DNA from: Escherichia coli
GTDB lineage: Bacteria; Pseudomonadota; Gammaproteobacteria; Enterobacterales; Enterobacteriaceae
Assembly (NCBI RefSeq): GCF_003334255.1
Contig: NZ_QOWU01000238.1
Reading direction: 5' to 3' (one strand)
Length of the DNA: 455 nt
Shown here: one piece after another, positions 1 through 455 of the stretch
How the letters are laid out: every line of letters begins with the position of its first letter
How positions within the stretch are numbered: the first letter of the stretch is position 1
The notes under the pieces: generated by a model
Database searches by the model: none
What the model was told of the DNA's origin: nothing
What the model saw: only the letters and a program-made list of their open reading frames with translations
Translations under genes and position numbers: made by a program

Positions 1-455
1 TCAGCACATGGCGGGGCTTCGTCTATGTGGCGTTCATCATTGATGTGTTTGCCGGATACATCGTGGGGTGGCGGGTCTCATCGTCCATGGAAACGACATT
101 CGTGCTGGATGCACTGGAGCAGGCGTTATGGGCCCGTCGACCGTCCGGCACGGTCCATCACAGTGATAAAGGTTCTCAGTATGTATCGCTGGCCTACACA
201 CAGCGGCTTAAGGAAGCCGGATTACTGGCATCAACAGGAAGTACAGGCGACTCGTATGACAACGCGATGGCGGAGAGCATCAATGGTCTTTACAAAGCGG
301 AGGTAATACACCGTAAGAGCTGGAAAAACCGTGCAGAAGTGGAACTGGCCACACTCACGTGGGTGGACTGGTATAACAATCGACGATTGCTGGAAAGGCT
401 GGGCCATACTCCTCCGGCAGAAGCAGAAAAAGCTTATTATGCTTCCATCGGAAAC
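1..455 (+). CDS. IS3-family transposase OrfB, DDE (rve) integrase catalytic domain; internal fragment, partial at both 5' and 3' ends
   Basis: Frame 3 (first full codon at 3..5) is open across the whole window and translates to [151 protein letters not shown]. It carries the IS3-family/retroviral-integrase signatures: 'HSDKGSQY' (second catalytic Asp, codon 165..167), '[16 protein letters not shown]' (catalytic Glu at 273..275, conserved Lys seven residues later at 294..296), and the C-terminal 'W(V/I)DWYN..RRL...G..PP.E.E..YY' block. Recognised from memory of IS3, IS629 and IS6110 OrfB sequences, not from a search. Confidence 0.9.
1..455 (+). mobile_element. Internal segment of an IS3-family insertion sequence (probably IS51 subgroup, IS629/IS1203/IS3411-like); no element ends within the window
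   Basis: The window is fully occupied by the transposase catalytic domain. Neither the IS terminal inverted repeats nor the orfA/orfB frameshift region are present, so the element boundaries lie outside the window on both sides. The subgroup assignment is from recalled motif patterns only. Confidence 0.8.

Follow-up and report, generated by a model that had tools for sequence, protein, structure and literature searches.

The transposase fragment in the window

The window, by which we mean the whole 455-nt stretch of DNA analysed here, is 100% identical to nucleotides 796-1250 of IS629, an element of 1310 bp. An identical full-length copy is found on plasmid p120899_146 (NZ_CP025917.1; L002, 2206-3515), where the window matches positions 3001-3455 within orfB (2583-3473). 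Frame +3 of the window (nt 3-455) is free of stops and encodes 151 amino acids. Stops interrupt the other two forward frames, and the ORFs on the reverse strand and in the other frames are short and without support. The window has the following features.

1..1, + strand: left window end, IS629 nt 796, the first 3'-exon base at the site of a group II intron (from the match to the intron-split copy L001)
3..455, + strand: partial orfB of IS629 with both ends open, OrfB residues 141-291 of 296, IS629 nt 798-1250 (from the translation, NF033516, Pfam and 100% identity to L002)
42..44, + strand: conserved non-catalytic Asp, D14, in the 'VAFIIDVF' strand (invariant column)
165..167, + strand: second catalytic Asp, gat in HHSDKGSQY, D55 = OrfB D195 (invariant column)
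273..275, + strand: catalytic Glu, gag in DNAMAES, E91 = OrfB E231 (invariant column)
294..296, + strand: conserved Lys, aaa, K98 = OrfB K238 (invariant column)
455..455, + strand: right window end, IS629 nt 1250 (isoform L019 differs at IS629 nt 1251)

The partial orfB encodes the back two-thirds of the catalytic domain, the portion of the RNase-H-like DDE core that lies behind the first catalytic Asp. The 151-aa peptide matches the NCBIfam model NF033516 (transpos_IS3) with 177.6 bits (E=4.1e-52), where the curated cut-off is 160 bits, and the match spans only the last 142 positions of the profile (228-369 of 369). Pfam rve also matches (E=1.4e-19), as do rve_3 and rve_2. The window peptide belongs to the catalytic domain of an IS3-family transposase OrfB, which upholds the family assignment made in a first-pass annotation of this DNA. 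A chance pattern in non-coding or unrelated sequence can be dismissed as the source of the motif, given this E-value to the IS3 transposase model, the score above the curated cut-off and the annotated transposase genes that match the window at 100% identity. The DDE observation is confirmed as real, well beyond chance.

The HHSD codons (cat cac agt gat) occupy window positions 156-167 and the AES codons (gcg gag agc) positions 270-278. D55 and E91 are separated by 35 residues, which is the DD(35)E spacing, and K98 lies seven residues past the Glu. A sequence search with the full OrfB against solved structures (phmmer, PDB) returned no match at E<=0.01, so the catalytic assignment was checked by a divergent IS3-family alignment. 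This comprised the window peptide, InsF of IS3, InsD of IS2 and InsK of IS150 (all E. coli K-12), and an OrfB fragment of ISEc31. Identity across the alignment is 21-33%, and only ten columns are invariant, including D14, D55, G57, Y60, N87, E91, K98, Y124, N125 and P138. The second Asp, the Glu and the Lys reported in the first-pass annotation are thus all present, both as codons read directly and as invariant columns, and the domain is indeed without frameshift or stop over nt 3-455. D14 was rejected as the first catalytic Asp; full-length sequences place the catalytic residue further upstream, in a W.(A/G/S/T)D.T motif.

The IS3, IS2, IS150 and ISEc31 proteins have the rve/DDE core in common with the window, but at 21-33% protein identity they belong to separate elements. 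The retroviral integrase/DDE transposase superfamily likewise has the DD(35)E spacing and Pfam rve in common with it, a kinship at the level of the domain family only. Rfam found no RNA families inside the window. The first catalytic Asp, OrfA, the frameshift site, the promoter and both terminal repeats are absent from it. As it lacks that Asp, the DNA-binding N-terminal part, a start codon and the ends, no functional protein can come from the window alone.

IS629 and its full-length copies

IS629 is a well-studied element that is very common in E. coli and Shigella, where it inactivates genes by insertion and brings about rearrangements, particularly in O157:H7. Numerous E. coli chromosomes and plasmids match the window at 100% over its full length, and at least 80% of it is present in 3539 of 5426 complete genomes. 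The sequence is also present on Shigella, Salmonella and Klebsiella plasmids. No exact match to the first 119 nt of the window was found among GTDB species-representative genomes.

The copy on p120899_146 shows what surrounds these 455 nt in a complete element. It is bounded by 25-nt inverted repeats, TGAACCGCCCCGGGAATCCTGGAGA and TCTCCAGGAAACCCGGGGCGGTTCA, at 2206-2230 and 3491-3515, so that the full element has the terminal repeats TGAACC…GGTTCA. ATA flanks it on both sides as a 3-bp target duplication. The first catalytic Asp is encoded at 2988-2990 (LWVADFTYV). In the identical full-length copies, this is five codons before the first full window codon, outside the window as had been proposed, and an in-frame stop ends orfB 18 nt past window nt 455, shortly downstream as also anticipated. 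From the right window end to the end of the right terminal repeat are 60 nt.

Upstream, the expected orfA reading frame is found (108 aa), and it overlaps the 296-aa orfB at ctc tgg aaa aaa tga in the -1 frame. The first-pass annotation had expected a frameshift site of the A AAA AAG type in this overlap. A site is there; its type is different, since L002 has an A6 run (tgg aaa aaa tga). The run is placed at the orfA stop, inside a match to the ALIL pseudoknot (Rfam RF01497, 120 bits), and PGAP annotates the element with a 'programmed frameshift'.

We suggest that a complete element would produce the transposase OrfAB by -1 frameshifting on the A6 run where orfA ends, inside the ALIL match. 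By analogy with studied IS3-family members, OrfAB would then move the element by copy-out-paste-in via a circular intermediate. For IS629/IS1203v, OrfAB made by -1 frameshifting has been described as the transposase, OrfA alone reduces activity, the DDE triad is required, and a circular copy-out-paste-in intermediate is formed (bioRxiv 10.1101/2023.06.07.543989). We infer from IS3-family knowledge that the element of the window would transpose in the same way.

The element is named from several sources. The exact 296-aa OrfB belongs to a cluster whose sources say 'IS629 transposase OrfB' and 'Putative Transposase for IS629 [CFT073]', and the PGAP label of a fragment in a further locus (L003) is 'IS3-like element IS629 family transposase'. 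The identical full-length copy agrees with IS629 of E. coli and Shigella in length, ends, ORFs, ALIL match and 3-bp duplication. IS1203/IS1203v and IS3411 are isoforms of IS629. A copy that PGAP names IS1203 has 96.3% DNA identity to the full-length element, which fits the 4-5% divergence reported between IS629 sub-types (Rump et al., PMC3271280). Judged by the OrfB cluster source names, the PGAP labels, the length and this identity to IS1203, the element is IS629 of the CFT073-type sub-type. The O157 (IS1203-like) sub-type differs from the window by 22 nucleotides and 4 amino acids, none of which affects D55, E91 or K98.

A 94.3%-identical isoform (L020, NZ_CM192163.1) is annotated as an intact transposase and carries D86G and N87S in window-equivalent residues. 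It may perhaps be impaired, as N87S hits a residue that is invariant in the divergent IS3-family alignment. Plasmid p120899_146 itself carries a second IS629-type copy (4057-5263) in opposite orientation to the one at 2206-3515. The two copies span about 3 kb, and the second is annotated as frameshifted. Both are situated among IS66- and IS110-family elements, in nested IS debris.

A group II intron insertion site at the window start

The window begins exactly where a group II intron inserts into IS629. At this site …TTTTACTTACG, which extends to IS629 nt 795, is followed by the intron and then by TCAGCACATGG…, the first base of which is window nt 1. In L001, the Rfam match to domains V/VI of Intron_gpII ends at position 3000 and the match to the window starts at 3001. 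This intron is 2270 nt long (GTGTG…CTAC), has an intact ltrA and is inserted in sense orientation. Its 5' exon terminates in …TTACTTACG (also written …GATTTTACTTACG). The intron has the 3' end …CCTCTTACTCTAC, and the 3' exon that follows is identical to L002 over 515 nt. The intron interrupts IS629 directly behind the D-F-T-Y codons, which include that of the first catalytic Asp.

The same intron is found at the equivalent D-I-T-Y site of ISEc31 (L010 696-4179, NZ_CM144251.1), in the context GATATTACGTATA / intron / TCTGGGC. Its presence in both IS629 and ISEc31 suggests that it recognises the DNA that encodes the catalytic motif across IS3-family elements. Insertion of the intron E.c.I4 at defined positions in IS629, IS911, ISEc16 and ISEc31 has been reported (Leclercq & Cordaux 2012, PMC3522654), and IS629 and ISEc31 are the elements split in L001 and L010. 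The intron is therefore probably E.c.I4, a name that we take from the target profile rather than from a reference intron sequence. E.c.I4 systems carry the intron, whereas the window contains none of it and begins with the first 3'-exon base.

Of 5426 complete E. coli genomes, 1309 contain the intron/3'-exon junction, so that about a quarter of them have the split arrangement, and the intron together with the whole 3' exon occurs in 1037. The uninterrupted junction, counted over all IS629 isoforms, is present in 3091 genomes and a near full-length element in 3043. Among sampled genomes, best matches covering IS629 nt 1-795 form a recurrent class. In evenly spaced samples of 60 rows each, about 8 rows (~13%) of one were full-length copies that are at least 99% identical, and about 6-7 rows of the other were intron-plus-3'-exon copies at about 99% or more. 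For the CFT073-type isoform, intact and intron contexts are thus similarly frequent.

The composite of L001 and L015 is flanked by CCA on both sides, has one mismatch in the left repeat, and has orfA and ltrA intact. Joining its exons produces an uninterrupted 296-aa OrfB in which K53R and I109V, both conservative, are the only changes. A spliced L001/L015 transcript could, as judged from sequence, yield a full transposase.

The window might therefore represent only the 3' exon of such an intron-split IS629, with a full transposase supplied via spliced mRNA or by another copy. This would account for window nt 1 being the first 3'-exon base, and it draws on the 1309 genomes with the junction, on the 1037 that have the intron and the entire 3' exon, and on the L001/L015 composite with its CCA duplication, intact orfA and ltrA, sense intron and open joined OrfB. 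In a typical de Bruijn assembly, however, a 3' exon present only once would have part of the intron attached at its end. The contig starts cleanly instead, which better fits a segment common to intron-bearing and intron-free copies. We regard the 3'-exon origin as possible but rather unlikely.

A stronger reading, in which the genome has IS629 split by a sense intron after the first Asp codons and its transposase would depend on splicing, seems improbable for this DNA. If true, the activity of a DNA transposon would be under the control of a retroelement. The split arrangement is already published, and novelty would come only with demonstrated regulatory dependence.

The intron and a 3' exon that is cut at window nt 332 form a separate class that recurs on F-type plasmids (e.g., NZ_CP054233.1 13384-14015). 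Its members (rows H242-H244) are 98.4% identical and are annotated 'DDE-type integrase/transposase/recombinase'. They are intron-flanked remnants of IS629 that are kept across plasmids.

Contig ends and the copies behind them

The window is most likely a complete short contig, a repeat segment cut where the copies diverge. Contig NXJB01000163.1 (L012, GCA_002416715.1, 18 samples) is identical to the window from end to end over its whole 455 nt, and the 151-aa product is encoded on entire draft-assembly contigs of 454-456 nt. As a whole contig, it leaves no flanks in the source into which the sequence could be extended in the way the first-pass annotation had proposed. Three sister contigs (L011, L013 and L014) begin one base later, and two end 1-2 bases later. 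The ends of L011-L014 are recurrent assembly breakpoints, which, given these shifts of 1-2 bases, vary slightly between assemblies or with the assembler.

Both cuts may be explained by divergence among copies. On the left, an intron-bearing copy would diverge from an intron-free copy at IS629 nt 796. On the right, the contig would stop at the base that precedes an isoform-variable site, IS629 nt 1251. The contig would then most likely stand for two or more IS629 copies, of which at least one is probably interrupted by the intron. The chance that a contig end coincides with the exact intron site is about 1 in 10^3, and it is only from this coincidence that we infer an intron-bearing copy in the source genome. 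An isoform-specific unitig bounded by shared k-mers was considered and rejected for the left end. None of the sampled isoforms L017-L020 has a SNP at nt 795, and they share long identical runs inside the window that would break it up; the comparison did bring out the variant at nt 1251.

With good confidence, we conclude that this DNA is IS629 nt 796-1250 in the form of a collapsed repeat contig, whose left end is the intron homing site and from which the integrity of a single copy cannot be read. From the intact residues, the first-pass annotation had proposed a potentially active transposase copy. That proposal does not follow, since these 455 nt are shared by elements that are intact, split by the intron or truncated. 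They are identical in the intact 1310-bp elements L002 and L004 (the latter in hyxB-hyxA), in copies split by the 2270-nt group II intron (L001), and in L003, where the insertion of ISCro1 (IS66 family) has removed the first ~510 nt and the copy is annotated as a pseudogene. The activity of any copy is thus undecidable from this repeat-derived contig. That the contig ends at an intron homing site moreover points to a more mixed situation than one intact copy.

One intact, autonomous IS629 copy able to transpose is nevertheless a candidate for the origin of the window, one that we would place a little short of an even chance. The full-length copies L002 (on a plasmid) and L004 occupy different sites with orfA, orfB, repeats and target duplication intact, further copies at 99.9-100% identity have differing neighbourhoods (rows H172-H175), and 8 of 60 sampled records have a full-length copy at >=99% identity. 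The spread of full-length copies over different sites implies that the isoform moved recently. Yet nothing in the window distinguishes this case from the split or truncated ones, as the first Asp, OrfA, the frameshift site and both ends are outside it. The window is also an entire contig that begins at the intron insertion site, whereas a unique copy would normally assemble joined to its flanks.

The window could also come from a dead remnant, such as a copy 5'-truncated by another IS. L003 is an example that has exactly these 455 nt behind ISCro1, and there are further truncation classes, among them the F-type plasmid copies in which the 3' exon is cut at window nt 332. No truncation that we saw begins at IS629 nt 796 without the intron, though, and remnants are a minority among the sampled best matches. 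We consider this origin unlikely, and the collapsed repeat of several copies remains our preferred reading.

All of this is known biology of an ordinary, known element, and its significance is mainly at the level of annotation. The methodological lesson is that intact catalytic residues in a short repeat-derived contig are uninformative on the activity of any copy. The left end of the contig in turn flags the known homing of a group II intron into IS3-family transposase genes, at the conserved DNA that encodes D(I/F)TY.

Our account of the right end depends on a single isoform SNP, because the spread samples contain no frequent class of IS629 copies that ends at nt 1250. Truncated forms in these samples comprise the cut at window nt 332 together with a solo remnant that spans IS629 nt 1137-1310. 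Two other routes to the right end are speculation: a k of 33 combined with a tail duplication in L004, and a k of 43 combined with the remnant in L016. In L004, a tandem second copy of the last ~90 nt of IS629 (3516-3605) is located right behind the intact element. The duplicated tail is shared from window nt 424 onward, a point 32 nt short of the window end, and gives two right terminal repeats in a row. The solo remnant in L016 (401-574, NZ_CP060908.1) is ~97% identical and adjoins an IS5-family fragment. Remnants of this type are the sole IS629-like sequence in many chromosomes (~10% of sampled records).
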